Of a stretch of 64,000 nucleotides of DNA, positions 20,872 through 41,564 are shown one piece after another. A program made the translations under genes and the position numbers. Numbering within the stretch: the stretch's first letter is position 1; the number at the start of each line of letters is the position of its first letter. The notes beneath the pieces were generated by a model, which saw only the letters and a program-made list of their open reading frames with translations, searched no databases and was not told the origin of the DNA. Origin of the DNA: an uncultured Myxococcales bacterium (GTDB taxonomy: Bacteria > Myxococcota > Kuafuiibacteriia > Kuafuiibacteriales > Kuafuiibacteriaceae); NCBI GenBank assembly GCA_964473255.1, contig CAYYOT010000013.1, positions 21,075 to 85,074 of the forward strand. The letters are read 5' to 3'.

Positions 20872-21099
20872 TCAGCCGTCGGTCCGGTCGAAGCGGTCAT
20901 ATCGATCGCTGGGGTCGCACAGTCCGAGCGCTCCGCTGGTCGACTGCTCGGGAAGGCTGAGCGTGCCCTGTACGCGCTGGCGCGCTTCCCAGGCCGCCCA
21001 CTTGAGCTCCGCCAGCTCGTCGAGCTCTTCCTGAGGCGGCGTCAGGTCGTCGCGCACGATCAGCCATACCATCAAGATGATCATCACCATCCCGAGCAT
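20872..21099 (-). CDS. Possible small membrane-anchored protein
   Basis: Hydrophobic N-terminus followed by a charged helix; co-oriented with neighbours; no family recognised. Confidence 0.3.
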   Translation of the reverse strand: MLGMVMIILMVWLIVRDDLTPPQEELDELAELKWAAWEARQRVQGTLSLPEQSTSGALGLCDPSDRYDRFDRTDG

Positions 21100-27006: not shown

Positions 27007-27018
27007 CCCGCACCACCC

Positions 27019-27034
27019 GAGGGGCTCCTGCACC
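27019..27034 (+). repeat. Short direct repeat, copy 1 (GAGGGGCTCCTGCACC)
   Basis: 12-nt identity plus CACC with the copy at 32313-32330; a shorter AGGGGCTCCT lies at 32616-32625. Confidence 0.45.
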
Positions 27035-27357: not shown

Positions 27358-30300
27358 CTACGAACCTGCCTCGGCAAGAGGACGCCTCGAACGATTCAAC
27401 ACGGCTTCCTCGGTCAGCGGACTCGAGGGGTGGTTGGAAAGGCAGTACGGTGTGGCGATTCGCTGCGGGGCCGACATGCCTTCCGAGTAGGCATAGAAGC
27501 ACCCCGCCTTCAGCCTGGCAACGTCGCTGCCATCGCCACCACGGTCGCGGATTTGCTGCTGTGCGGCAGCAATTGCTGCCGGTGAATTGACCTTGCCAAA
27601 GAGAAGCGTCTTCGCATTCGAGATGATGGTGTGGTCGATACTTCGCGGCTCCTGCGAGGCGAACACGAGGCCAAGTCCGTACTTGCGTGCCTGAGCGGCC
27701 AGACGTCGGAAGCTCTCTCGACAGGCCACGGCTTTGGCGGCTGGCACGAAGTCTTTCGCCTCATCAATCACCATAAGCCCCCGAATGGTCCCGTCCGGAG
27801 CTGGGTTCTTCTTGATCCAAACAAACAGAATTCGAGCCAACTGGTCGAGGAAGGTCCTCTGCCCTTCCAGATCAGGAATACCAATGAAGTTCAAGACGGA
27901 GATGCGCGTTCGATGCCTGCCGAGACCGAAGAGCACCGATGGGTCTAACGACGTCCCGTCCCCCTGGAGCAGCCGGTCCATCTGCATTCGAGCCCGGAGC
28001 TCGTCGGCAAGTTCACGAACCAGCTTACCGGCCCGATCATAGCCCTCGAGAACAGTCGACGGGGGATCCGTCAGCACCGCCAGCAGATCCCTCAGACTCG
28101 AGCTATCCGACTCTGCCAGCACGTCAAGAGCTCGGTCGATGAGCGCTGTCTTCGTCGTTACGCTACGTCCGGTCACTTGAAGCATCTCAACCAAGCTTCC
28201 GCGAGTAATCTCCTTTGCGATCGCATACTCGTCGGGGGCATCCCGAATGCTGGATAGGTCGGGGATCGGGTTTAATTGCAGCGAACGTCCTGCCTCTCTC
28301 CCCGGCGTGAATACGACAGCTTCCGTCTGATCGAAATAGCGTGCGGCCTTGCCGCGGTCGGCCTCCCGGAACCCGTTTGGCTCCGCTGGCCAAGGGTCCC
28401 CAAGGCAGGCCAGGTCATTCGCACCGTCGATGACGATCGAGGGTACGCCGGCTAGTGCCGACTCTTCGACCAAGCGTTTCAAAAAGACCGTTTTTCCCGA
28501 GCCGCTCCCAGCGAGGATCACCGTGTGATTTGTGAGCTGCCCGAGAGACACCGCAACCTCAGGACCCTTGCCGGCTCCCGAGTACGCCTCCCCCAGCGGG
28601 ATAGAAGTCTGCAGGCCCGGTTGGCGATGTTCGGGATGGGACTCGGCCTCAGATGCATGCAGAGGCCGCGTACCCTTGGGCGAGGATTCCGACGTTGCAG
28701 CCTCGGAACCGCCTGCCACCGATGGCGACGAAAAGAGCCAATCAGCGGAGGCCGACAACATGGCCATCGAGTGGATCGGCTTCTTGTCGCGAAGCCAGCT
28801 CTTCAACCCTGGCAGATCTTCAGTTGTCTTCCAGAGCTCGCCCAGAGCCCAGAGAGTCGCGAGATCCTCAGTGCCGGGGTTGAGGAGAATGCCGCCTCGC
28901 TTCCCGAACGTGTCCATTAATCGGGCGGTCACCGGCCCACTCGGAACGTCGGTCGTCCGGAACAGAATCAGGCGCCGAAAACCAAGGGCTCTGTCGATGC
29001 CGGACTCCGTCATGGCCGCCTTCAGCCTCGCCTGGAACGCGCTGGGGTGCTTGCTCTGGAGAAAGCGAAATCCAAGGCAGCGCTCTCTATCGCCCTTATC
29101 ATGGTGGACGATGCGAATGAGCGCATGCAGTGGGTCGTAGCTCTTGTTCGTTGTAAACGTCTTCGTAACCTCCGCGTCCTTGTCCGTCGGTAAAATCACT
29201 TCGACCGCAAGTGTGTCGCAAAGCGCTTCAATAAGAGCATCCTGAGCTTCCTCGGCGTTCGGTTCGAGGACTGGTCCAACTTCGAAACGAGCACGAGCCC
29301 GGTCGAACTGATCTGTGAAGGCGTCGCCCGTATTGGGGACTGGCACTGCGTCTGCGGCGCCCGACAAAGACTGAAGCTCCCGCACTTCGTGGCGAAGGAG
29401 ACATGCCTCGACATGCTCACCGCATCGCCGCAGGACCTCGCGAGGGTACAATCCCACCCCCTCTCTGAGCGCTTCCTCTTGGATAGGCCAGGTCGGATAC
29501 GGCGGCTCAAAGCCAACGGAGCGATACGCCGGAATGGTCCGTGCCTCCAGGAGGGACATCGCAATGGTGTGATCATCGAGGGGCCGAAGTGTCGTTGGTG
29601 CCTCGTATCGACCGGCGACAGGCGCGATCGACCTTTCCCTGAGCGTGCTCCACGTGCTTTCGAGGCAGGACACAACGAGCATCGTCCGCGGCATCAGGTC
29701 TCGGAGCGACATTAGTCCCCCTGCGATTCCTTCTACAATCGACAGTGACGCCTGCTGGCGCCCAAACGGATCTCCGAGTGTATCTTCCTGGCCGGACGCG
29801 AGCTGGTGCTCGCGTACGATGTTGTCCATCTGATCAAAAGAGAGGACCAGCGGTGCGCGCAACGACAGAAGCCAGCCTAAGCCTTTCACAACCTGAGGTG
29901 GCTCAGGATTCTGGTTCCTGAAGTCGTGATGAAACCCCGTCTGGTCGTTCACACCCAAGCTCTGAAGCCACGCGTAGCCGATGTTCATTAGCTCGAAATC
30001 CGTCGAGCCGAGAAGAACGAGCGCCCGAACGACGTCCTGATGCTCCAATGCTGCTGCCATGTCCCTCTTCGCCAGCTCTCCGATGATCGTGCGGATTCGA
30101 TTGTTGAGTCTGGGTGGGCGCAGCTCTCGGAGCTCGCTAACGGAGGACACGTTCAGAGAATCGCCACAGAGCTCGACGATACCCTCGAGCGTCTCCACGT
30201 ACTGAGGCTGACCAGTGCAGCCCGGCTTCATGATCGACTTGAACGCACCCAGTAAAACAGTGTCCCAAAAACTCGAGACGTTCGAGAGATCAACGGACAG

Positions 30301-30561
30301 GAACGAGCAGCCTCGGTCGAGCGCCTCACGACGCAATGAACCGAGAAGATGCGTCTTTCCCGAACCTGCGGTGCCGATGATGATCTGGCCAAGAGGTGCT
30401 TTGCTGTCAGACCGGCTGATGAGTGCGTCGAGCTTCCTGCTCAGGAGATTGCGCGCCTCCGACTGAATGTCCGGCACGTCCGGCAGTCGATCGTCCCAAA
30501 TGCTGTCGAGGTGAGTCGTCCAATTTAGGTCGACCGCCCTCAGCGCTGCTAGGTCATTCAC
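27358..30561 (-). CDS. Large double P-loop ATPase: N-terminal AAA-type NTPase plus C-terminal HerA/DUF87 domain
   Basis: GTAGSGKT / LSFDQMD in the N-terminal half; AGSGSGKT / VIDEAKDF / ARKYGLGLVFASQ in the C-terminal half. GTG start overlaps the upstream stop and follows AAGGAGG. Confidence 0.88.
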   Translation of the reverse strand: MNDLAALRAVDLNWTTHLDSIWDDRLPDVPDIQSEARNLLSRKLDALISRSDSKAPLGQIIIGTAGSGKTHLLGSLRREALDRGCSFLSVDLSNVSSFWDTVLLGAFKSIMKPGCTGQPQYVETLEGIVELCGDSLNVSSVSELRELRPPRLNNRIRTIIGELAKRDMAAALEHQDVVRALVLLGSTDFELMNIGYAWLQSLGVNDQTGFHHDFRNQNPEPPQVVKGLGWLLSLRAPLVLSFDQMDNIVREHQLASGQEDTLGDPFGRQQASLSIVEGIAGGLMSLRDLMPRTMLVVSCLESTWSTLRERSIAPVAGRYEAPTTLRPLDDHTIAMSLLEARTIPAYRSVGFEPPYPTWPIQEEALREGVGLYPREVLRRCGEHVEACLLRHEVRELQSLSGAADAVPVPNTGDAFTDQFDRARARFEVGPVLEPNAEEAQDALIEALCDTLAVEVILPTDKDAEVTKTFTTNKSYDPLHALIRIVHHDKGDRERCLGFRFLQSKHPSAFQARLKAAMTESGIDRALGFRRLILFRTTDVPSGPVTARLMDTFGKRGGILLNPGTEDLATLWALGELWKTTEDLPGLKSWLRDKKPIHSMAMLSASADWLFSSPSVAGGSEAATSESSPKGTRPLHASEAESHPEHRQPGLQTSIPLGEAYSGAGKGPEVAVSLGQLTNHTVILAGSGSGKTVFLKRLVEESALAGVPSIVIDGANDLACLGDPWPAEPNGFREADRGKAARYFDQTEAVVFTPGREAGRSLQLNPIPDLSSIRDAPDEYAIAKEITRGSLVEMLQVTGRSVTTKTALIDRALDVLAESDSSSLRDLLAVLTDPPSTVLEGYDRAGKLVRELADELRARMQMDRLLQGDGTSLDPSVLFGLGRHRTRISVLNFIGIPDLEGQRTFLDQLARILFVWIKKNPAPDGTIRGLMVIDEAKDFVPAAKAVACRESFRRLAAQARKYGLGLVFASQEPRSIDHTIISNAKTLLFGKVNSPAAIAAAQQQIRDRGGDGSDVARLKAGCFYAYSEGMSAPQRIATPYCLSNHPSSPLTEEAVLNRSRRPLAEAGS

Positions 30562-31199
30562 GGCGCCTCCTTCATGTAGATAATGTGACGCAGATGACCG
30601 GCCACCCTGATCGCGGCGCTCTCATCGGCTTCAGTGATGCTGAGTGGATCGTCCTTCTGCATCAGCACGAGCTTGTTCCCGCGCTGAAGCTCCAGCAGGG
30701 CCGCATCGAGCCGCTCGCGCGGCACATCAGCCATTCTGTCACGCAATGCAGAGAGGTCGACGCGGACATTCGCGTTACCCCCGCCGGCGTCACGATACGC
30801 CCGCCAGACTCGCTGAGGAATCTGCTCTGCGCCTAGGTCAGACGACTCGGCAATCGCGGCAAGCCCGAGGAACTCACCAAGTGGGATCCCTCGCTGATTA
30901 ATCGCTGATTTCAGGCGGGACAGGATGCGAGACGCTAGTGCGTAGGCCCTCGAGACCGATGTTCCGGGAGCCGCGAGGTCAGACCCGAGATTGTCGGCGA
31001 CCCAGGCCCATCCGCGGTCCGTGAGCACGACGAGTTGAGCCGTCTTGTGGTCAGGCCGCGGCTCAAAGGCGATATAGCCGCGTTGCCTCAAACGCGTGCG
31101 AGCCTTCTTGTCGACGTGTCCAAACTTCGTTGGACCTTCCGCAAACACTAGGCGGGTCAGTATTCGACGCTCTTCATGGCTCAATTGGTTTGCCATCAT
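30558..31199 (-). CDS. Uncharacterised protein with winged-helix-like domains
   Basis: LRQRGYI..VVLTDRGWAW (wHTH wing pattern) and VDLSALRDRMADVPRERLDAALLEL; ATGA and GTGA overlaps with both neighbours. Start moved to 31199. Confidence 0.75.
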   Translation of the reverse strand: MMANQLSHEERRILTRLVFAEGPTKFGHVDKKARTRLRQRGYIAFEPRPDHKTAQLVVLTDRGWAWVADNLGSDLAAPGTSVSRAYALASRILSRLKSAINQRGIPLGEFLGLAAIAESSDLGAEQIPQRVWRAYRDAGGGNANVRVDLSALRDRMADVPRERLDAALLELQRGNKLVLMQKDDPLSITEADESAAIRVAGHLRHIIYMKEAP

Positions 31200-32173
31200 C
31201 CTTCTCCTATCCCCTGTGCCCGTCGCGCCCTTACGACCTGCCGGATATCCTCGAGAACTACTCGTGGCTCGACCATTACTCGCGAGTGCATGACCCGAAG
31301 AACAATGTACCCCGACGCCATGAGCTGCTGGTCTCGTCTTCGGTCCGCCTCGTAGTCGGCTTGACGCAGGTGCTGCCAACCATCGACCTCCAGAGCCATC
31401 TTGCCCGCCATCCAAACCGCATCGACGATCGGCTCGGCCCCGGCCCTCGTCCGCACTCTCCGGTTGAAGGCGAACAGACCACGCAGCTCGGGATCCGTGC
31501 GAAACAAGGTGAAGAGCAGCTGCTCTCCCGGACTGAAATGATGCGGTTTACCTTCTTCGACTTCAGCTTCAAGCCGGCAACGTATGCCGCGATACGCGAA
31601 GCGCTGGATCTCCGGAGCCGCCCTGAAGGCCTCCGGGATAGCGACGATCAACCTCGTCTTGGATGCCTGGAGGAAGCCGTCGAGCTGAGAGAGGGCGCCC
31701 CCGATCATTTCAGGCATCGCCGACGAAGACGGCTGCCAGAACGCCATCGTGTGGTTCGTACCACCCAGGATCCGAAGGAGGTGGTCAGCCTCAACTTCTA
31801 GAGGTAGTCGGGTCACGCGCGGGGCGCGTGTGCGGGAGACCTTCCAGAGCGCCGCGTCCAACCAGCTCCGCGTAACGCCCGGCGTGGAAGACGAGATTGC
31901 CCGTGCGACCTCTGCCCTCGCCTTCGTAGGAAAGACGCTCCCTACTGCAGCTCTCGGCAGTCCGTTCCAGCGAGGCCAGACCCGCAGGGCATGTTCGGCC
32001 AGCGCAGCCGTGATCGAACCTCGAATGTGGTTAACGGTGGCGTCCGGCTGTACGGCAACGACCGAGAGTCCTTCACATCGGGATTTGAACTGCAGCCAAG
32101 GAACCGGATCGATGTGCGCATCCGTCCAAAGAACACGCACCTGGCCAGGCCCCACGTCCGCGAGTCGCTCCAA
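31196..32173 (-). CDS. DUF559/Vsr-like PD-(D/E)XK endonuclease-domain protein with uncharacterised N-terminus
   Basis: C-terminal IVDAVW..ALEVDGWQH..DRRRDQQLMASGYIVLR. Confidence 0.8.
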   Translation of the reverse strand: MERLADVGPGQVRVLWTDAHIDPVPWLQFKSRCEGLSVVAVQPDATVNHIRGSITAALAEHALRVWPRWNGLPRAAVGSVFPTKARAEVARAISSSTPGVTRSWLDAALWKVSRTRAPRVTRLPLEVEADHLLRILGGTNHTMAFWQPSSSAMPEMIGGALSQLDGFLQASKTRLIVAIPEAFRAAPEIQRFAYRGIRCRLEAEVEEGKPHHFSPGEQLLFTLFRTDPELRGLFAFNRRVRTRAGAEPIVDAVWMAGKMALEVDGWQHLRQADYEADRRRDQQLMASGYIVLRVMHSRVMVEPRVVLEDIRQVVRARRAQGIGEG

Positions 32174-32312
32174 TGCCCCAGCTCCGCAGCGTGTCTTAGC
32201 GAAGGTGAAGCCTGGATCCTACATTCACCTGACCCCGCCCGGTTGAGTTGCTCGATCCCTTCCGAAGGGCTACGCAGAAGCTGCGTCACCGACGTTCTGT
32301 AGCCACACATCA

Positions 32313-32330
32313 GAGGGGCTCCTGTGCACC
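32313..32330 (+). repeat. Short direct repeat, copy 2 (GAGGGGCTCCTGTGCACC)
   Basis: Matches 27019-27034; the two copies bracket the three-gene ATPase/nuclease operon. Confidence 0.45.
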
Positions 32331-32383: not shown

Positions 32384-32596
32384 ATGGGCGAGAGTCGACT
32401 CGATGGCACCATTGGGCTCGTCACCATCTCCGGCGGCGGCGTCTTCCTCGAAGTGAACGTCGCCGACGCCGGCCTCACCAACGAGCCGTTCGCCCCACCA
32501 CCCGTTCCCAGCGCGGCGACCGGGACGATGTTCATGCTCCTGCTAGCTCTGGTGCTGACCGGACTCCTCGCGACCCGACGCAGACTCGTCGGCTGA
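32384..32596 (+). CDS. Small ORF or gene remnant ending in an IPTL/PEP-CTERM-like sorting signal
   Basis: ..PPPVPSAATGTMFMLLLALVLTGLLATRRR: VP motif, hydrophobic helix and basic tail. Confidence 0.45.
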   Translation: MGESRLDGTIGLVTISGGGVFLEVNVADAGLTNEPFAPPPVPSAATGTMFMLLLALVLTGLLATRRRLVG

Positions 32597-32858: not shown

Positions 32859-33656
32859 GTGTCGCGGACGAAATCCGAAACTCGGCGGCTCCAGCCTTTC
32901 GGCGTCGAGGTTCTCGGCTTCGAGGTTCTCGGAGGGGTACCGGGGCCCGAGGACCGGCGCCGATTGCGGCACCTTCTGGCGACCCATGGCGTGGTCGTCC
33001 TTCGCGAGCTCCATCTCGAGGACCCGGACTTTGCCGCGCTGCTCGGCGCGCTCGGCCGACTCGTCTTCACCGAGGGCGAGCGACCCGTCCCCGGTCGAGT
33101 CGACCTGAATATCGTAACGAACCAAGGACGGACACGCCCACCCCGCAGTGTCTTTCACACCGACACGAGCTACGTGCGGCGACCGCCCGCTTTCACGGCG
33201 CTTCGGCCGGTCGCGCTGCCCGAGCAAGGCGGCGAGACCGTCTTCTCGGACCAGGTCGCCGCCTACGCTGCCTTGCCCTCAGTCGTGCGCCATCGGCTGA
33301 GGACGGCCCGCGTGGAGCACCGGGTCACGGGACTCCGGGCCACAGATCTATCGGAGACCAAGAGCGTTCACCCACTGTTTCGCCGGCATCCGATGACCCA
33401 CGACATCGCGCTCTATCTGTCGACGCCCGAGCGCTGTCGCTGGGCCTCCGACGAGCCGGAGACCCGGCTCGAGACGCTGTACGAACACTCCATCCACCCA
33501 GAGCGGACATATCGGCACGCGTGGAAGCCGGGCGACGTCCTGATCTGGGACAACCGTCGAACGATGCACCGAGCCGACCACTCCAATGTGGTCGGGATCC
33601 GCGCCTTTCACCGTGGGCTCGTCGCTGGCGAGGAGCCAATCCCGGCGTTTGTCTGA
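32859..33656 (+). CDS. TauD/TfdA family Fe(II)/2-oxoglutarate dioxygenase
   Basis: FHTDTSY (HxD), GGETVFSD, HPLFRRHP, WKPGDVLIWDNRRTMHRA. Confidence 0.9.
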   Translation: MSRTKSETRRLQPFGVEVLGFEVLGGVPGPEDRRRLRHLLATHGVVVLRELHLEDPDFAALLGALGRLVFTEGERPVPGRVDLNIVTNQGRTRPPRSVFHTDTSYVRRPPAFTALRPVALPEQGGETVFSDQVAAYAALPSVVRHRLRTARVEHRVTGLRATDLSETKSVHPLFRRHPMTHDIALYLSTPERCRWASDEPETRLETLYEHSIHPERTYRHAWKPGDVLIWDNRRTMHRADHSNVVGIRAFHRGLVAGEEPIPAFV

Positions 33657-33678
33657 AGCGCCAAATCAAAGGAAAATC

Positions 33679-35415
33679 ATGTCAGTACTCTGCTTCATCG
33701 AACGCTTCGCCACGGCCTGGCAGGCACGTTCCACCACGATCACCTCATTGGACGGGTTTCTCACCGCGATGGCCGAGGATCCGGACTTCGAAGCGTTCGC
33801 GACCCGCCTCAACGAAACGGATTGGTACGACGCCGAGGTCAGTCGCGCTGCCGAGCAGCTCGACGCTACCGAGATTCTCTTCGTCCTCCGCCAGCTTACC
33901 GGCGGAGCGAGGCAGCCGCTTCAACGCTTTCTGTTTCTGACCGGCGAGCTGCTGACGAACTTCAATGAAGACTTTGGCGAGCGCTGGCTGGCCTGGGCGG
34001 AGGCAGCCGCGAGAGACGAGCGCGGTTCGCAGCCGCTGTATCAATGGGTCGAAAGCCTCCGCTACGACCCTCTGGAGGGCGACGACCACGCTCGTTTTCC
34101 GACATCCGGTTTTCGGCGGAGCAGCGGGACGGTCGTGAGCAACGAGGATGACCGCGTCATCGATGCCGTCTCGACCCTCCAGGTTTCTTCGTCCGTCCAG
34201 GTGTCGGACAAGACTCTGTCTTTGAGCAACCCGACCTTGGCACGCGTCTACGGTCCAGCGGGACGCTGTCTCGCGGTCGTCGACCGTAACGTCGAAAAGT
34301 TCTACGGCCCCCAGCTCGACGCCTACTTTCGCCATCATCGAATCCTGCTCGAAAAGCGAGTCGTCCGTGCCATGGAAGTCGACAAGGATATCGGCAACGT
34401 CGAAGCGCTCCTCGCCGAATTCAAGCAGTTCGGAGTCGCGCGCCACGAGCCGGTGTTGGTCGTGGGCGGGGGCGTCCTCGCCGACGTCGCGGGCCTCGCG
34501 TGCGCGCTCTACCATCGCGGAACCCCCTACGTAATGCTCTCGACCTCCATCGTTTCGGGAATCGACGCAGGGCCTTCCCCGCGAACCTGCTGCGACGGCT
34601 TCGGGTACAAGAACCTCTTCGGCGCCTATCACCCGCCGGCTCTGAGCCTGATGGACCGCAGCTTCTTTTCGACGCTTCGTCCTGGGTGGCTCCGCCACGG
34701 TATCGCGGAGATCGTGAAGATGGCGGTCGTCAAAGACGCAACGCTGTTCGCTGACCTCGAGGCGGCAGGCCCGGCGCTCGTGGCGACTCGCTTTGGAACC
34801 CGTACCGTCGACGCCGGCAGCCGCATCGACGGATTGAGCCAGGCGATCTTGGGCGCTGCCCTGCGGTCGTACGTTGAAGCCGAGTACGGAAATCTCTTCG
34901 AAACCCACCAGTGTCGGCCCCACGCCTACGGCCACACCTGGTCGCCGGGCTTCGAGCTCAGCGCGGGCTTGCTTCACGGCCACGCCGTCTCGATCGGAAT
35001 GGGCTTCGGCGCCTACCTGAGTCATCAACGCGGGTGGCTTCCACGGGCCGACTTGATGCGGATCCTCAACCTCATCTCCCGGCTCGACCTGAGTCTGTGG
35101 AACGATGCGGTGGACGAGCCAGAACTCTGGTGGCAGGCGCAAAACAAGATCATCCAGAAGCGCGGCGGACACCTCGCCGCTCCTGTCCCCCGGGGCCGCG
35201 TCGGCGCGTGCGGATACATCGAAGAGCTCTCGCGAGACGAACTCATCCAAACGCTGACCGACTACCGCGACCTTTGCCACACCTTCCCTCGAGCTGGCGT
35301 TGGCCTCGAGCCTTTCTGCGTCGATGTTGGACTGGAAGATCCCGCATCCACGGTCCCGACGCAGCAGTCGCCGACCGAGCCGTCTCACGCCGACCGTCAA
35401 GGGGTCATCTCGTGA
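33679..35415 (+). CDS. mysA: Sedoheptulose 7-phosphate cyclase (demethyl-4-deoxygadusol synthase type) with about 150-aa N-terminal extension
   Basis: VGGGVLADVAG, YHRGTPYVMLSTS, KNLFGAYHPP, AYGHTWSP, LLHGHAV; adjacent to mysB/mysC homologues. ATG 33679 follows AAAGGA. Confidence 0.9.
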   Translation: MSVLCFIERFATAWQARSTTITSLDGFLTAMAEDPDFEAFATRLNETDWYDAEVSRAAEQLDATEILFVLRQLTGGARQPLQRFLFLTGELLTNFNEDFGERWLAWAEAAARDERGSQPLYQWVESLRYDPLEGDDHARFPTSGFRRSSGTVVSNEDDRVIDAVSTLQVSSSVQVSDKTLSLSNPTLARVYGPAGRCLAVVDRNVEKFYGPQLDAYFRHHRILLEKRVVRAMEVDKDIGNVEALLAEFKQFGVARHEPVLVVGGGVLADVAGLACALYHRGTPYVMLSTSIVSGIDAGPSPRTCCDGFGYKNLFGAYHPPALSLMDRSFFSTLRPGWLRHGIAEIVKMAVVKDATLFADLEAAGPALVATRFGTRTVDAGSRIDGLSQAILGAALRSYVEAEYGNLFETHQCRPHAYGHTWSPGFELSAGLLHGHAVSIGMGFGAYLSHQRGWLPRADLMRILNLISRLDLSLWNDAVDEPELWWQAQNKIIQKRGGHLAAPVPRGRVGACGYIEELSRDELIQTLTDYRDLCHTFPRAGVGLEPFCVDVGLEDPASTVPTQQSPTEPSHADRQGVIS

Positions 35416-36230
35416 CGTCGTCCCTGCGACCGGTGACACCAAACACGATCCTGGCTGCGCGCCTTCACGAAGCGCTCGCGTGGGCTCGAACGCACGACGT
35501 GGCCGCGTCTCTGGTCGAGCATCTCGAGGCCTGCACCGCCCTGGCCGCTCCCCTCGAGCCTTACCTCGAGCGCCAGGCCAGTCCCGAGTCACCAGGCCGC
35601 GCCCAGCTCGCCGCGGACAGTCGGAGCGAGCCCTGGAAGAGACGCTTTGAGACATCGGCGTCGAGCCTACCCTTGGAGGCGGAGATGCTGAGCGGGCGCG
35701 TCGAAGGGCAGCTGCTGCGGATGCTGGTGCAGATCTCGGGCGCTCGGCGCGTGCTGGATATCGGCCTGTTCACCGGCTACTCCGCCCTGACCATGGCCGA
35801 AGCACTACCCCACGACGGCTTGGTCACCGCCCTGGAAATCGACTCCTTCGTTGCCGACTTCGCGAAAACGCACCTGTCCTCGATGCCGGGCGGCGAAAAG
35901 ATCGAGGTTCGGTTGGGGCCGGCGCTCGAAACTCTGCTGGCGCTGTCGGGTGAGGGTCGAGGCTTCGACCTCGTCTTTATCGATGCGGCAAAGACCGACT
36001 ACCCAGCCTACTATCGGGCTCTCTTCGAGCTCGAGCTCCTGCACGAGCGAGCACTGGTCGTCGCCGACAACACACTATATCAGGGGGAAGTCTACGCTTC
36101 GGGTGGCCCTGGCTCATCTTCGGGCGTCGCCGTTGCCGAGTTCAATGAGCTGGTCCGCAAAGACCCGCGAGTCGAACAAGTCCTGCTACCCGTTCGCGAC
36201 GGACTCACCCTGGCGAGGCGCGTAGCATGA
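35412..36230 (+). CDS. mysB: MAA O-methyltransferase
   Basis: RPVTP N-terminus, PLEAEMLSGRVEGQLL, VLDIGLFTGYSAL, FDLVFIDAAK, DNTLYQG; closely resembles cyanobacterial Ava_3857-type OMT. GTG overlaps the mysA stop. Confidence 0.9.
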   Translation: MTSSLRPVTPNTILAARLHEALAWARTHDVAASLVEHLEACTALAAPLEPYLERQASPESPGRAQLAADSRSEPWKRRFETSASSLPLEAEMLSGRVEGQLLRMLVQISGARRVLDIGLFTGYSALTMAEALPHDGLVTALEIDSFVADFAKTHLSSMPGGEKIEVRLGPALETLLALSGEGRGFDLVFIDAAKTDYPAYYRALFELELLHERALVVADNTLYQGEVYASGGPGSSSGVAVAEFNELVRKDPRVEQVLLPVRDGLTLARRVA

Positions 36231-37672
36231 ACGATTGCGGGGCCAACCTCCGTCTGGTCGATGCCTCGGAAACATCGCCGGCGCCGAGCGGAGCAGAAGG
36301 CCGCTCCGAGGTTCAAGCAAGGGCCCTCGCGGAAGGGCTTTCGGCGTTGCCGCCGGTCGCCAGGACTTGGCTGACCCTGGCCACCCTCGGTGCCGCCCTG
36401 CCCTTAACGTCGGTCGCGACGCTCGCTGGTCTCGCAGCCGCACGCCCCCGTTCGAAGCGACGGTCGCGCTTCGCGAAGAAGGCCCGAGCCACCGGCATGA
36501 CTGTTCTGCTCACCGGTGGGAAGATGACGAAGGCGCTTCACCTGGCCCGCGCGTTCTCCGCCGCGGGCCATCGAGTGCTGCTGACCGAGTCCGTGAGCTA
36601 TCCGGTCGTCAGTCATCGATACTCGCGGGCGGTCGACCGATTCTTCGTCGTCCCCGATGTTCGCCGGGAGCCCATCGCTTATCGGACCGCGCTGGCCGAC
36701 ATCATCGAACGCGAGGGCGTGGACGTCTTTGTTCCGGTGGCCAGTCCGGCGTCAGCTCGGATCGAGGCCAGTCTCGCCGCTCATGAGGTAGAAGGGTGTC
36801 GAGTCTTTCAGGCCTCGCCCAGTCTCACGGAGCGCCTCGACGACAAGGTACAGTTCTGTCGACTGGCCGAAGACCTCGGACTCAGTGCGCCAACCGTCAT
36901 CCCGGTAGAATCGCCGGAAGCCGTCCTCGACTTCGACTTTCGGAGCTACCCGCACCCCTTCATTCTTAAGAGTGTGCGCTATGACCCCGTCCATCGACTC
37001 CAGCAACTACGGCTGCCAAGCCCCGGAGTCGAACACCATGTGCGGCGCCTTCCGATCCGCTCCGACAATCCCTGGGTTCTTCAAGAGTTTCTCGTCGGGG
37101 ACGAATACTGCACGCACAGCGTCGTCCACGAAGGCCGCATTGTCGCTCACGTGTGCTGTGCTTCGTCGGATTTTCAGGTCAACTATCGCTCGGTCGACCA
37201 TCCGAGGATCGAGGCCTGGGTGCAGCACTTCGTCGCCGCACTGAACCTCACCGGCCAGGTCTCCTTCGACTTCATCGAATCACCGGATGGCGAGGTCAAG
37301 CCGGTCGAGTGCAACCCCCGAACTCACAGCGCAGTCACGGCGTTCGACGAGCCGGAGGCTCTTGCCCGAGCCTACCTCGGCCCGAAGGACGGTGAGACGC
37401 TCCGGCCTCGACAAGACGCAAAGCCCACGTACTGGCTCGCCCATGAGGTCTTCCGACTCGGACGCGCAAAAAGCTGGGCTGAGGCGCGAGCCCGGATGGC
37501 GGTCATGCTCGGCGGACGCGACGCGGTCTTCGATGCAACCGACCCTCTCCCCTTTTTGGTCCTGCATCACGGCCAGATACCTTGGCTACTCCTGGAGAAC
37601 TTGCTGCGGGGCCGTGACTGGCACCGTATCGACTTCAACATCGGCAAGCTGGTCGAAGCGGAAGGAGACTGA
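36227..37672 (+). CDS. mysC: ATP-grasp mycosporine-glycine synthetase
   Basis: TVLLTGGKMTKALHLARAF, HRYSRAVDRF, LDDKVQF, FILKSVRYD, ECNPRTHSA, C-terminal RIDFNIGKLVE..GD. Confidence 0.92.
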   Translation: MNDCGANLRLVDASETSPAPSGAEGRSEVQARALAEGLSALPPVARTWLTLATLGAALPLTSVATLAGLAAARPRSKRRSRFAKKARATGMTVLLTGGKMTKALHLARAFSAAGHRVLLTESVSYPVVSHRYSRAVDRFFVVPDVRREPIAYRTALADIIEREGVDVFVPVASPASARIEASLAAHEVEGCRVFQASPSLTERLDDKVQFCRLAEDLGLSAPTVIPVESPEAVLDFDFRSYPHPFILKSVRYDPVHRLQQLRLPSPGVEHHVRRLPIRSDNPWVLQEFLVGDEYCTHSVVHEGRIVAHVCCASSDFQVNYRSVDHPRIEAWVQHFVAALNLTGQVSFDFIESPDGEVKPVECNPRTHSAVTAFDEPEALARAYLGPKDGETLRPRQDAKPTYWLAHEVFRLGRAKSWAEARARMAVMLGGRDAVFDATDPLPFLVLHHGQIPWLLLENLLRGRDWHRIDFNIGKLVEAEGD

Positions 37673-37674
37673 CC

Positions 37675-38700
37675 GTGACGCGGCTGCGCGTAATCCATCT
37701 CGTCGGGTCGCCAACCTCGACGTTCTTCTTCGAGCTTTCACGCCTCTACGCGACCGACGTCGTTCAGCCCGTGGACACCGTGTCCCAGTTCGTTCAGGTC
37801 GACCCTCGAGGGCGGTGGTCCGTCGGGCCCTCCCTGAACGAGCTCGAGGCGGTTGGGGGTGTACGTGACATGCTGGCGACCGTGCGTCCCGCCGACATCG
37901 TGGTTCCGCATACTCTCTGCGAAAGAGGTCTCACCGGCCTGCGGGCCTTCTTTTCGGACGTGCTCCAGCTTCCGCTCGTGGGCTCGAGCCCTCGCGTGCA
38001 CGAGGTTGCTCTTGACAAGCGCTGGACGCGAGCGACGGCGACCGCGGTGGGCGTAACCATCGCGCCTGGAGAGGTGCTGTTCGAAGAGCGGGAGCCGTCC
38101 TTGCCGCTTCCCTACGTGGTCAAGCCGGTACGGGCCGATAACTCCGACGGGCTCAGCTTAGTCCGATCGATCGTAGAGATCCCGGGAGCTCTTCATCGCG
38201 CCCTCGGTTTCGGATGCGCGGCGTTGGTCGAAGCCTTCGTTCCGGGGCGAGAGATCCGCGTCGGCGTGCTGCAGACGTCTGCCGGCTGTCGCGTCCTCCC
38301 CATGATCGAGTATTCGCTTTCCGAGACACTTCCCATCCGAGTGCGCGAGGACAAACTCGATGCGTCCGCTGGTCGACTGCGACCGAGTCGACATAGCGAA
38401 TCCGCGGTGATTCCTGCTCTTCTCGCACCAGGTCTTCGAGCGAGGCTCGAAGATGCCGCTCTACGCATGCATCGGGGCCTCGAGGCTCGTGATTTTTCCC
38501 TGTACGACTTTCGCTGTCCAGGCGATGACGAGGAGCCCATCCTGCTGGAAGCAGGTCTCTACTGGTCATTCGGGCCAGCGAGCATGATCTCGAGAATGCT
38601 TCGCAGCGAGGGTGCATCCCTGCCCACCATCGCTGGGGAGGTCTGGCGACAGGCGGCTGCTCGGCACCCGCTGAAAGCTGAAAGGATGGACGCTGCCTGA
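37675..38700 (+). CDS. mysD: D-Ala-D-Ala ligase-like MAA aminotransfer enzyme
   Basis: VIHLVGSPTSTFFFELSRLYA (MysD-type N-terminus), VVKPVRADNSDG, PGREIRVGV, SLYDFR, LEAGLYWSFGPAS. Confidence 0.88.
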   Translation: MTRLRVIHLVGSPTSTFFFELSRLYATDVVQPVDTVSQFVQVDPRGRWSVGPSLNELEAVGGVRDMLATVRPADIVVPHTLCERGLTGLRAFFSDVLQLPLVGSSPRVHEVALDKRWTRATATAVGVTIAPGEVLFEEREPSLPLPYVVKPVRADNSDGLSLVRSIVEIPGALHRALGFGCAALVEAFVPGREIRVGVLQTSAGCRVLPMIEYSLSETLPIRVREDKLDASAGRLRPSRHSESAVIPALLAPGLRARLEDAALRMHRGLEARDFSLYDFRCPGDDEEPILLEAGLYWSFGPASMISRMLRSEGASLPTIAGEVWRQAAARHPLKAERMDAA

Positions 38701-39443
38701 TGATGAAGGCGATGCTCTTCGGTTCGATCGGAACCGTCATCGAAACCTCGGAGCTGCAGCGACAAGCCTACAACCAGGCTTTTCGGGATTGTGGAATCGG
38801 ATGGGAGTGGTCCACCGACGAGTACCGCGCTCTCCTGCGAATACCCGGTGGACGAAATCGGCTCCGCGCGTACGCCCAAAGGAAGGCGCGAGCAACTCCC
38901 ATGAACGGGATGCTGGACGAGGTGCATCGGCGGAAGTCCGAGCTGTTCCGGCAGGCGTTGGCCTCTTCCGAGCTCGAGCTGCGGTCGGGCGTGGCTCGAC
39001 TGCTGGCCGAAGCTCGAGCCGCCGACGTTCGGACTGGCTGGGTGAGCACGACCGAGCGCGAAACAATTCAAACGATCGCGTCGCGGTTTCCCGATATTCT
39101 CGATGGATTTTGGGTGCAGACCGATCGGACGACGGTCGCGCGGGAAAAGCCACATCCCGACGCGTACCAGGCGGCGCTGTCCGCACTCGACGTTTCGCCC
39201 GCCCAAGCGGTGGCCATCGAAGATACCGCGGAGAGCCTAGCGTCCGCCGTTCGGGCCGGCGTTGCCACCGCAGTCACGCCCGGCGCGTTCACCATGACCC
39301 ACGACTTTGACAGGGCGGCTGGCGTGGTGTCCCGACTCGGAACCCCGGAAGAGCCTGCCGAAGTGATAAGCGGTCCATCGCCGATGAATCCACCGTGGGT
39401 TACGCTCTCGTGGCTCGACGGTCTTCGCTCCAGCGGTTGGTGA
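38700..39443 (+). CDS. HAD-superfamily (CbbY-like) protein lacking the motif-I Asp nucleophile
   Basis: LFGSIGTVIETSELQRQAYN in place of DxDGT; KPHPDAY and VAIEDT motifs retained; 1-nt overlap with mysD. Confidence 0.85.
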   Translation: MMKAMLFGSIGTVIETSELQRQAYNQAFRDCGIGWEWSTDEYRALLRIPGGRNRLRAYAQRKARATPMNGMLDEVHRRKSELFRQALASSELELRSGVARLLAEARAADVRTGWVSTTERETIQTIASRFPDILDGFWVQTDRTTVAREKPHPDAYQAALSALDVSPAQAVAIEDTAESLASAVRAGVATAVTPGAFTMTHDFDRAAGVVSRLGTPEEPAEVISGPSPMNPPWVTLSWLDGLRSSGW

Positions 39444-39550: not shown

Positions 39551-40447
39551 TCAGAAGATGAGGGAGCGGGAGGTGAAGCCAAAGTTGGCGCGGAAGAACT
39601 CCCCGTTGACCGTGTCTTGTCCGTCGCCGGGATCGACGGTGAAGAGGTTGTCCCAGACGAAGGATGCGGCGATGTCTACCACGCGATTGCCCCAGGGGAG
39701 CGTGTAGCCGAAGAAGAACCCAACCGGGACGACTTCGGTGTGGTTCCTCCCGAGGTCCATGTCGACGAAGCCGCTCTCGAGACCGGCGAAGAAGCGCGCC
39801 GTCAGGTTGTGGGCGTAGCGTATCGGGACGTTGATTCCCCCGACCGTTCCTCCGTCCTCTTCGACGATGAGACCCACCCGCTCGGCAGCGTTGAGGTCGT
39901 CGAAGATGCTGACCGAGGTGAAGACACCGGTATCGAGTCGGCCTCGACCCAGCCGGACGCGCACGGGGACGCCGGGGAGGATCTTATATGGACGACCGAG
40001 GTGGAAATTGAGCCGGGCGCCGACGTCGACGTCGCCGAACGTCAGCGCGTACGTGAGAATCACCGGGACCGTCTCGATCGTGACAAAGCCCGGCGTGAAC
40101 TGCACGGGAATGAACAGCGCCGAGATCTCGAGCTCGTTGAAGATCCCCACCGCCACGCCCGCACGCCAGCCAAACACCAAGGACTGATCCGCGGGTTCGA
40201 TATTGGGCTGAAGCGGTCGCGGGACGGGATTGATCAGCCGGAAGCCCCCGTCGTCCGACGTGTCGCCTATCCGCTGACCGAAGGCCGGCGAAGAAAGCGG
40301 AGCGCTGATCCCTGCGAGTTCGTTGCGGTCGACGGTGATGTGGCGATTGGTGAATCGCCCGGGCGGCCCGAGACGTCGAGGCTTGGCGTCCGCGGGGAGG
40401 CTCCCCGCAAGCGAGACGACGGTGAAGAGTGCGGCGGCTAGCCTCAT
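39551..40447 (-). CDS. Exported beta-rich, probable outer-membrane barrel protein
   Basis: Signal peptide MRLAAALF..PADA; alternating beta-strand pattern; terminal ..FGFTSRSLIF; ATGA overlap with the upstream gene. Confidence 0.6.
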   Translation of the reverse strand: MRLAAALFTVVSLAGSLPADAKPRRLGPPGRFTNRHITVDRNELAGISAPLSSPAFGQRIGDTSDDGGFRLINPVPRPLQPNIEPADQSLVFGWRAGVAVGIFNELEISALFIPVQFTPGFVTIETVPVILTYALTFGDVDVGARLNFHLGRPYKILPGVPVRVRLGRGRLDTGVFTSVSIFDDLNAAERVGLIVEEDGGTVGGINVPIRYAHNLTARFFAGLESGFVDMDLGRNHTEVVPVGFFFGYTLPWGNRVVDIAASFVWDNLFTVDPGDGQDTVNGEFFRANFGFTSRSLIF

Positions 40448-40845
40448 CGCTTCAGGTCTTCCATCAACCGCTGCTCGAGCTCGGACCACTCGGCATCGGT
40501 GAAGGCTTTCCGGAACTCGATCTTCGTCTGAGTCCATTTCTTGCGATCTTCCTCGAACTGCGTTTCCCGATTCGGATTACAGGCCCGGTAGTCATCCGAC
40601 GTTACGTCGTAGGTCGCGTCGACCTTGGCGATGCACGCATGAACCTCGCCCAACGTCTCACGTCGAGCGATGAAGTACTGTTCGAGGCCCAGGAGCTCGT
40701 TCTTCGCCATCTCCGCACGCTGTTCGTCAGTAATGACCTGGGAGATATGGACGTTCATCAGCTCGACGAGCTTGTAGAACGCCTTCGTTTCATCACCGTC
40801 GCCGGTGAAGTACATGACCATCATTGCGATTCCGACCCAAACCAC
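40444..40845 (-). CDS. Uncharacterised membrane-anchored alpha-helical protein
   Basis: Hydrophobic N-terminus followed by amphipathic helices ending FRKAFTDAEWSEL; coupled to neighbours. Confidence 0.65.
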   Translation of the reverse strand: MVWVGIAMMVMYFTGDGDETKAFYKLVELMNVHISQVITDEQRAEMAKNELLGLEQYFIARRETLGEVHACIAKVDATYDVTSDDYRACNPNRETQFEEDRKKWTQTKIEFRKAFTDAEWSELEQRLMEDLKR

Positions 40846-40848
40846 GGC

Positions 40849-41268
40849 TCACCTCAACCTATTGATCTTTTCGAACTCTTCTCGAGAGACCATCCCGCGC
40901 AGCTTCAACTGAAGCGCGACGTACGCTTCGCCGAGGCGGACCTGCTCCGCCGTTGCTCGCTGAAAAAGGTCATTCGTCCGCTCCTCGAAGTACGGCTCGT
41001 CGCCGTCGAGCTTGAACAGCTCAGCCTCGTAGGCGGCCCGCTTGACCCGGTACTCGCGGATGAGCGCATCGAGTCCGAGATACAGCTCGGTGACGGCTTC
41101 CGCGCGATCGCGGTCCCGGACGATGAGTTCGATTCTGTCGATCTTGCTCTCGATCCGCGCCTGCATCGCAACGATGGGATGAGAAGGCGGACCACTCGGA
41201 GTCTTGCAGCTCACGGCACCCCCGAGCGCCATGAGAACCGCCAGATGAAGCTCCCCCATTCGCGGCAT
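40849..41268 (-). CDS. Uncharacterised alpha-helical lipoprotein
   Basis: Lipobox GAVSC; helical body ending LRGMVSREEFEKI. Start moved to 41268. Confidence 0.6.
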   Translation of the reverse strand: MPRMGELHLAVLMALGGAVSCKTPSGPPSHPIVAMQARIESKIDRIELIVRDRDRAEAVTELYLGLDALIREYRVKRAAYEAELFKLDGDEPYFEERTNDLFQRATAEQVRLGEAYVALQLKLRGMVSREEFEKINRLR

Positions 41269-41564
41269 GCCGATTGGATAGGGCGCCGGAAGCTCAAGAT
41301 CAATGGACGCAGAAGCGAATCTACTTCGTGCGAGCGCAGACGTGACGCCGAAGACCGCTTCTTCATCCCACGAACGACGGGGCGGCGATTGACTCTTTCC
41401 ACGATGATGGACGACGACCGAGGCCACTGACGACAGACCTGAGGATGAAGGCCGACCGAAGGCCGGCATGAGCCGGTCGCGCGCGTGCGCTCGAGTCTGA
41501 CGACTTTGCCTTTGTTCTCCGTGGCGACGGTCCGCTGGGAGCAGAGCATTACTTGGAGGGATCG

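Follow-up and report, generated by a model that had tools for sequence, protein, structure and literature searches.

What kind of system is encoded by a compact group of three overlapping genes in the genome of an uncultured Myxococcales bacterium, and is it one that has been described before? The window analysed here is the whole 64,000-nucleotide (nt) stretch at positions 21,075 to 85,074 of contig CAYYOT010000013.1 (NCBI GenBank assembly GCA_964473255.1), and the group, called the cassette below, consists of three minus-strand open reading frames (ORFs) that lie head to tail in the order A, B, C and span 4.8 kb. A sequence-only reading of the window had taken them for an undescribed and horizontally acquired defence system, composed of a DUF559 nuclease (gene A), a winged-helix protein (gene B) and a double ATPase (gene C). 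The cassette is real and intact, it is horizontally acquired, and its most likely role is defence against phages or plasmids. We consider it probable that it is an intact copy, gained by horizontal transfer, of a widespread A-B-C cassette directed against invaders and belonging to the Orc/CDC6-coupled 'HerA/FtsK capture systems', a class whose existence was predicted from comparative genomics (Nucleic Acids Res 2024;52:1005, PMC10853773).

Gene A (31196-32173; 325 amino acids, aa) and gene C (27358-30561; 1067 aa) are each defined by their ORF and translation. The longest open frame of gene B is 30558-31415, of which the ATG at 31199 is the most plausible start, giving a gene at 30558-31199 and a product of 213 aa; the gene caller of the protein collection began at the second ATG and reports 212 aa (P0124). 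The genes are joined by 4-nt start/stop overlaps, with 'ggATGAtgg' at 31196-31199 between A and B and 'ccGTGAatg' at 30558-30561 between B and C. The junctions read ggagaaggATGAtggca and ggaggcgccGTGAatgacc, which shows the ATGA and GTGA overlaps to be real, and a GGAG-type ribosome-binding site is present ahead of each start. GC content is 0.59-0.62 across the cassette versus 0.65-0.69 in the flanks, and GC at third codon positions (GC3) is 0.68-0.69 for genes A, B and C versus 0.78-0.88 for the flanking genes, so that both the overlaps and the lower GC of the operon described in the sequence-only reading are borne out. There is no Rfam match within positions 20000-42000 of the window, and a scan for promoters and terminators returned matches at chance level only.

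Gene C has two Pfam matches above the gathering score, AAA_22 (31.8 bits, cut-off 27) and DUF87/HerA (31.1 bits, cut-off 23.2), with AAA_22 and AAA_16 spanning about aa 40-165 and DUF87/HerA spanning aa 666-816. AAA_16, ORC-CDC6-like (E 0.014), BrxC_BrxD (E 0.011) and Hda (4e-4) all fall below cut-off, as do further P-loop matches to NACHT, nSTAND, FtsK and TrwB. All of the motifs listed in the earlier reading occur in the translation (GTAGSGKT and FDQMD in the N-terminal part; AGSGSGKT, VIDEA, ARKYG and ASQ in the C-terminal part), and both P-loop modules are intact and conserved in the family. An AlphaFold2 model based on the sequences of 22 family members, with a mean predicted local distance difference test score (pLDDT) of 82, adds to these two ATPases an REase-like (restriction endonuclease-like) domain and a helix-turn-helix (HTH)-like region that lie between them and had been overlooked.

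The C-terminal module (aa 653-1060, nt 27382-28605, minus strand) is a HerA/FtsK-type ATPase, with Walker A motif AGSGSGKT (K690) and Walker B motif VIDEA (D933-E934). K690, D933-E934, the arginine finger R959 and the sensor-1 glutamine Q970 are invariant, and a helical insert at aa 776-866 (nt 27964-28236, minus strand), with four main helices in the model, is conserved at 32% across the family. The top matches of this module in a Foldseek search of the PDB are HerA hexamers (9x1m, 5e-13; 4d2i; the SIR2-HerA structures 8xav and 8wod), along with DUF4297-HerA (8ziq and 9c1m). A sequence profile of gene C likewise finds HerA chains in the PDB, and TdpA weakly (8wet, E 1e-4).

The N-terminal module is an AAA+ core (aa 56-330, nt 29572-30396, minus strand) with Walker A motif GTAGSGKT (K69) and Walker B motif LVLSFDQMD (D243-Q244), followed by a lid (aa 331-400, nt 29362-29571, minus strand) that is helical at aa 331-390 in the model. 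Core strands are predicted at aa 57-63, 86-91, 238-243 and 293-300, and aa 120-235 form a helical insertion. K69 is invariant, and in 17/17 family members compared, including distant actinobacterial ones, the Walker B motif has the form hhhhDQ[ILM]D, with Gln always at the position of the catalytic Glu. By analogy with AAA+ enzymology, a module with this substitution would act as a switch in its ATP-bound state and not as a fast motor, and the earlier suggestion that the first ATPase acts as a sensor fits this invariant DQxD. A profile of the N-terminal ATPase yields weak, P-loop-level AAA+ matches in the PDB (ClpB/C, Msp1, FtsH).

A switch-like first ATPase also suits an abortive infection mechanism, in which a STAND/NLR-like N-terminal ATPase would sense a phage protein or the state of the DNA and the HerA-nuclease would degrade DNA indiscriminately, including that of the host, so that the infected cell dies. 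The sub-threshold Pfam matches of gene C to NACHT, nSTAND5, nSTAND3 and AAA_16 are in keeping with it, as is the lack of a methyltransferase or other self-marking gene in the cassette. SIR2-HerA and DUF4297-HerA act by killing the infected cell, and the solved structures closest to the C-terminal module are those of their complexes. However, all of the STAND matches are below gathering scores and confined to the P-loop, the C-terminal sensor repeats typical of STAND proteins (TPR, WD40, LRR) are absent, and the two winged helix-turn-helix (wHTH) domains of gene B together with the HTH and REase-like domains of gene C suggest recognition of DNA rather than of protein. We therefore regard abortive infection as unlikely.

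Between the two ATPases lies a middle domain (aa 412-540, nt 28942-29328, minus strand) with the order alpha-beta-beta-beta-alpha-beta, a candidate inactive REase fold (iREase). DSSP assigns to the model H437-454, E461-466, E480-486, E492-500, H506-520 and E529-534, a succession of helices and strands like that of the PD-(D/E)xK fold, and E437, E454, H479 and E493 are conserved. The domain has no D...(D/E)xK motif and no canonical Asp/ExK catalytic residues; it matches nothing in Pfam at E up to 10, and its profile finds nothing meaningful in the PDB. It is followed by the HTH-like region (aa 543-610, nt 28732-28935, minus strand; helices 543-554, 564-579, 583-593 and 600-610) and by a disordered, Ser/Pro-rich linker (aa 614-649, nt 28615-28722, minus strand) with pLDDT <50 and 12% identity across the family. 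A test for mosaicism against the closest relatives found fairly even identity among the domains (46-75% outside the linker) and no swapped half.

Gene B has no match in Pfam (E up to 10), PADLOC, NCBIfam or PHROGs. The winged-helix call in the sequence-only reading lacked support from sequence, and it is the AlphaFold2 model (pLDDT 83, 43 sequences) and its Foldseek matches that bear it out. The model has two helix-strand-helix-helix-strand units with long helices between them, and its matches are to MarR-family regulators (probability 1.0) and to small phage wHTH proteins (template modelling score, TM, 0.65-0.72 over 65-80 residues). On this topology and these matches the product is a protein with two winged-helix domains, predicted at about aa 1-75 and 126-209. 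It evolves faster than its neighbour, gene B being 24-40% identical to its relatives versus 33-60% for gene C. A search with the single sequence returned only itself, and a profile built from locus-derived sequences was required; that profile matches 684 cluster representatives (50% identity clusters) at E <1e-30 among 1.84 billion. There is no sequence-level link between gene B and DndG or SspB as represented by the PADLOC models. The C-terminal wHTH of gene B (profile positions about 120-214) also falls within proteins of 1000-1600 aa (P0244, P0245, P0297, P0338, P0369 and P0371). These match the profile in 3-6 stretches, most of them adding an ADP-ribosyltransferase, SAP or phage zinc-finger DNA-binding domain, and they resemble the polyvalent proteins that phages and conjugative elements encode.

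Gene A combines a family-specific N-terminal domain (aa 1-205, nt 31559-32173, minus strand) with a C-terminal DUF559 / Vsr-EDxHD-type endonuclease domain (aa 206-325, nt 31199-31558, minus strand). The nuclease assignment made earlier is confirmed by a Pfam DUF559 match at aa 217-314 (E 7.8e-11, above the gathering score), and a profile of the gene A family matches two PDB entries, 3hrl (2.8e-12), a DUF559 structure, and 3r3p, a mobile-intron endonuclease of Vsr-like type. Since E262, D264, H268 and D281 are invariant across ten homologues, the nuclease is probably active. The N-terminal domain is conserved only within its own family and has no Pfam match at E up to 10, and gene A as a whole matches no system model in PADLOC or NCBIfam.

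The cassette belongs to a large family. Gene C has at least 476 homologues, and the 120 listed each cover 99-100% of the query; among these listed matches identity is 59-60% for three metagenomic proteins and about 40% for the others, with sources in cyanobacteria, Caldilineaceae and Polyangiaceae. A contig scan adds actinomycete and Hydrogenedentota copies at 32-37% identity (at least nine loci, all distant), and the window's own family is also represented among the homologues. Six closer-relative loci, fetched separately from contigs that encode gene C homologues, all contain a DUF559 protein (299-401 aa), an unknown protein (210-231 aa) and an ATPase (1059-1088 aa) in the same order, and the flanking genes differ in every one. 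Local hidden Markov models (HMMs) place gene B directly upstream of gene C in 16/16 loci with upstream DNA, representing several phyla. Gene A is present in 10-11 of about 15 loci carrying B-C; those without it (L001, L006, L007 and L008) are all actinobacterial, and no substitute gene common to them was found. The only conserved unit across loci is B-C, with or without A. Three genes of the window's relatives, at G001:C265:23130-25946, G010:C140:6560-9493 and G018:C554:28597-31464, lie in open frames of 1248-1474 aa, and their products match both the N- and C-terminal halves of gene C at 25-29% identity; by their sequences these longer proteins are more distant members of the two-ATPase architecture.

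Within its own lineage the cassette is rare. A full-length homologue is found in only 2/40 relatives of the window's genome at 37-38% identity, one of them in the same genus, and such low identity even within a genus identifies the copies in relatives as separate acquisitions. This patchy distribution, the low GC3 and the variable neighbours substantiate the horizontal acquisition proposed earlier. They also bear on whether the cassette might serve housekeeping DNA repair by analogy with end resection by HerA-NurA, for which one could cite the archaeal and Deinococcus HerA of HerA-NurA complexes among the best structural matches and the presence of a nuclease partner. There is no NurA, however, the cassette is absent from 38/40 related genomes, and the neighbourhood differs in every locus; patchiness, varied neighbours and atypical GC3 together argue against a core repair function, which we consider very improbable.

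The genes that surround the relatives of the cassette are often associated with defence or toxin-antitoxin functions. They include PIN, HigB-HTH and HicB toxin-antitoxin genes, ISL3 and IS66 transposases, two trypsin-NB-ARC-TPR (STAND) proteins, a TIR_2 protein, a Card1 nuclease and a PLD-helicase-DUF3427 protein, and a PADLOC census of 136 neighbouring ORFs at 13 loci identifies CARF-HEPN, CARF-PDDEXK, PDC-S01, PDC-S68, PDC-M70B and an AriA/mad3-like ATPase.

The window itself differs in this respect, as the cassette is flanked by a haloperoxidase-like lipoprotein gene on one side and a mycosporine-like amino acid (MAA) cluster on the other. A 17-nt direct repeat, CAYCMGAGGGGCTCCTG, brackets the cassette, with its left copy at 27014-27030 (plus strand, CACCCGAGGGGCTCCTG) and its right copy at 32308-32324 (plus strand, CATCAGAGGGGCTCCTG), 135 nt upstream of the gene A start; the start-to-start distance is 5294 nt, and at up to one mismatch the repeat occurs only at these two sites in the whole 5.04-Mb genome. 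By a rough estimate chance alone would produce such a pair about one time in ten, and it is a possible insertion scar or att-like repeat, not proof of one. No integrase is found near the repeat in the window, and no empty insertion site is definable: the nearest genomes are not syntenic with this part of the window, and the haloperoxidase homologue of the relative G003 lacks flanking synteny to it.

The neighbouring MAA cluster is absent from 5/5 related genomes tested. It forms a gene row at 32859-39443 encoding TauD, a DHQ-synthase-like protein, an O-methyltransferase, an unknown protein (in the ATP-grasp position), a D-Ala-D-Ala-ligase-like protein and HAD, and since the DHQ-synthase-like protein has no homologue in the five related genomes the whole 27-40 kb stretch may be a variable region. 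Between the cassette and this cluster is a 70-codon ORF (32384-32596, plus strand) whose product carries at its C terminus a Pro-rich stretch followed by a hydrophobic helix of 17 residues and RRR, resembling a PEP-CTERM-type sorting tail. A second low-GC patch at 39551-41549 (0.595-0.607) contains minus-strand ORFs at 39551-40537, 40444-40845 and 41211-41549, none of which has a Pfam match.

The bracketing repeat and the patchy distribution, which has the look of horizontal transfer, raise the question of whether the cassette instead handles the DNA of a mobile element, or is a selfish addiction module, with the pump and its loader serving the transfer, segregation or maintenance of their carrier. 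Conjugative elements and some phages do use HerA/FtsK ATPases as DNA pumps (PMC10853773), the PHROG terminase-like and Zot-like families match the Walker B region of gene C weakly, and the C-terminal domain of gene B recurs in proteins of polyvalent type. Yet no integrase, relaxase, replication or type IV secretion system gene travels with the cassette in the loci examined, where B-C, with or without A, is all that is conserved, and the family has 3 matches among 72,556 plasmid records, including records of 1.57 Mb and 11.85 Mb, and none among 50,697 phage records. A role in serving a mobile carrier accordingly seems improbable.

Under the capture reading, gene B and the N-terminal half of gene C would together recognise foreign DNA and load onto it. 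That half would consist of the ORC-like AAA+ module, which through its Walker B DQ would bind ATP and hydrolyse it slowly, a degenerate domain of putative REase fold and an HTH. The C-terminal HerA/FtsK module, presumably as a hexameric ring, would pump the captured duplex, and the N-terminal domain of gene A would dock on this motor such that the DUF559 domain nicks or cleaves the DNA fed in. As the cassette has no methyltransferase, discrimination would depend on DNA structures or proteins of the invader and not on an epigenetic mark. The existence of nuclease-less B-C pairs allows a variant in which B-C is the invariant core of an immunity machine of a kind not characterised before, with the nuclease as an optional addition; the ORC-like switch and the double-wHTH reader would load the HerA ring on foreign DNA, and pumping would neutralise that DNA without cutting, by stalling replication, packaging or transfer or by stripping proteins. 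This we regard as quite unlikely. If DNA were neutralised by pumping, the recurrence of the C-terminal domain of gene B in polyvalent proteins would indicate an arms race over the same DNA target.

HerA-type motors are emerging as a recurrent chassis of bacterial immunity, as in SIR2-HerA, DUF4297-HerA, DndH and TdpA, and the ORC-coupled version is so far a bioinformatic prediction only. The family is large and compact, with three genes and clear mutational targets, and offers a practical way to put the capture model to a first experimental test. The transfer of DNA from an ORC-like ATP switch to a ring translocase might be studied in it as well, and its nuclease-less B-C pairs raise the question of whether cutting is needed. 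A specialist aware of the 2024 analysis would not be surprised by the cassette, which is still an abundant and tractable candidate.

Several points weigh against assigning the cassette to the capture class as an anti-invader system. Its immediate neighbours in the window are not defence genes. The earlier reading proposed a test for enrichment near defence genes; the relatives' neighbours are frequently of that kind, but the census was made without a genome-wide background control and the association is suggestive only. The ORC/Cdc6 assignment of the N-terminal ATPase leans on weak profile matches, at P-loop level only in the PDB, and the iREase at aa 412-540 is a candidate named from secondary-structure topology alone. 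Part of the actinobacterial clade lacks gene A, which indicates that the nuclease is not obligatory. The terms DUF559 and Vsr are absent from PMC10853773, and membership of gene A in its two REase families is unconfirmed. The literature searched contains no experimental study of either the cassette family or the capture class, and no paper linking DUF559 with DUF87.

Among characterised systems, SIR2-HerA (Nezha) and DUF4297-HerA (PDB 8xau, 8wiv, 8ziq, 9c1m) share with the cassette a HerA-type ATPase and a co-encoded effector, and are among the best structural matches of gene C residues 653-1060 alongside archaeal and Deinococcus HerA of HerA-NurA type. Their HerA is a stand-alone protein of about 570-700 aa without an ORC-like, REase-like or wHTH partner, and their effectors are SIR2 or DUF4297, whereas that of the cassette is DUF559. 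Membership is rejected, as the NCBIfam HerA_antiphage models score 24-34 bits against cut-offs of 800-850 and there is no SIR2 or DUF4297 gene. Membership of the HerA-NurA group is likewise rejected, there being no NurA, a homologue in only 2/40 relatives, and scores far below the cut-offs of the NCBIfam HerA equivalogs. The cassette is also not a STAND NTPase (Avs / bacterial NLR-like), given that NACHT and nSTAND3/5/6 are below gathering scores over about 25-40 P-loop residues, repeats are absent and the C-terminal half is HerA.

DndFGH, SspFGH and TdpAB resemble the cassette in joining a HerA/FtsK-type ATPase with a nuclease and multi-wHTH DNA readers (DndG, SspB). They differ in that the Dnd, Ssp and Pbe models of PADLOC match at P-loop level only (SspF 0.063, PbeC 0.053) and that the window has no linked genes for phosphorothioate modification. 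In BREX BrxC and the BREX-related capture system (BRC, PMC12839542) an ORC/Cdc6-like AAA+ works with a HerA/FtsK translocase and fast-evolving wHTH proteins, and the weak BrxC_BrxD match of gene C is a further likeness to BrxC. The cassette differs from these in having no PglZ, BrxA/B, methyltransferase, GNAT or TGT, and three genes versus seven components.

MADS (mad1-mad8, Pseudomonas aeruginosa SMC4386) is likewise a multi-ATPase defence operon, and its mad8 model matches the HerA module, this being the strongest PADLOC match of gene C (E 2.2e-24, residues 676-1028). It is nevertheless exceedingly unlikely that the cassette is a fragment or subtype of MADS. The MADS HMMs derive from HHpred alignments with homologues in the PDB and not from MAD families, and the mad8 model (PDLC04140) also matches an unrelated ABC/OLD-like ATPase (L009:14727-16238, E 6e-15) whose best match is mad3, so isolated mads_* matches are not to be read as MADS. 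The cassette has neither mad6 nor mad7, which are mandatory in the model, and no methyltransferase, kinase, specificity subunit or OLD-type module. With a generic mad8 HMM and the mandatory partners missing, membership is rejected.

The closest correspondence is with the capture systems. These occupy mobile neighbourhoods and couple HerA/FtsK domains to an Orc/CDC6 AAA+ ATPase, with an inactive REase invariably between the AAA+ core and a C-terminal wHTH, and include an active REase (two REase families are named) and a wHTH, all these domains being distributed over one polypeptide or several; a subset has a rapidly evolving separate protein of 2-4 wHTH domains, and in one version of HerA/FtsK there is no FtsK-alpha but an inserted 4-helix bundle, with a sensor-1 Q and an upstream Arg finger (PMC10853773). 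As the model has been restated, the wHTH and ORC modules place the apparatus on invader DNA and HerA/FtsK pumps the DNA towards the nuclease (PMC12839542). The cassette matches this domain inventory and order, with the ORC/Cdc6-type AAA+ and the inactive REase as candidate assignments, and the neighbourhoods of its family are likewise mobile and variable. Its HerA/FtsK module lacks FtsK-alpha and has the HerA fold (5e-13), DUF87, invariant R959 and Q970 and the four-helix insert; the active REase-superfamily nuclease corresponds to the DUF559 domain of gene A with invariant E262/D264/H268/D281, and the fast-evolving wHTH protein to gene B. At the position of the Orc/CDC6 AAA+ ATPase are an AAA_22 match of 31.8 bits, an AAA+ core with helical lid and generic P-loop matches in the PDB, and at that of the inactive REase is the fold order at aa 437-534 with helices at 543-610 after it and no sequence match. 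The cassette differs in having the ATPase-side domains in one 1067-aa chain, a DUF559 nuclease with an N-terminal domain of its own, and family members without the nuclease. Its exact arrangement is not confirmed among the examples in PMC10853773, the supplement of which has no usable accession list. Neither the class nor the cassette has a model of its own in PADLOC or NCBIfam, and no system model in these libraries covers the cassette. The claim that the system is undescribed is not supported, as the domain set is already in PMC10853773 and is restated in PMC12839542, and the cassette is most likely a member of this computationally predicted capture class.

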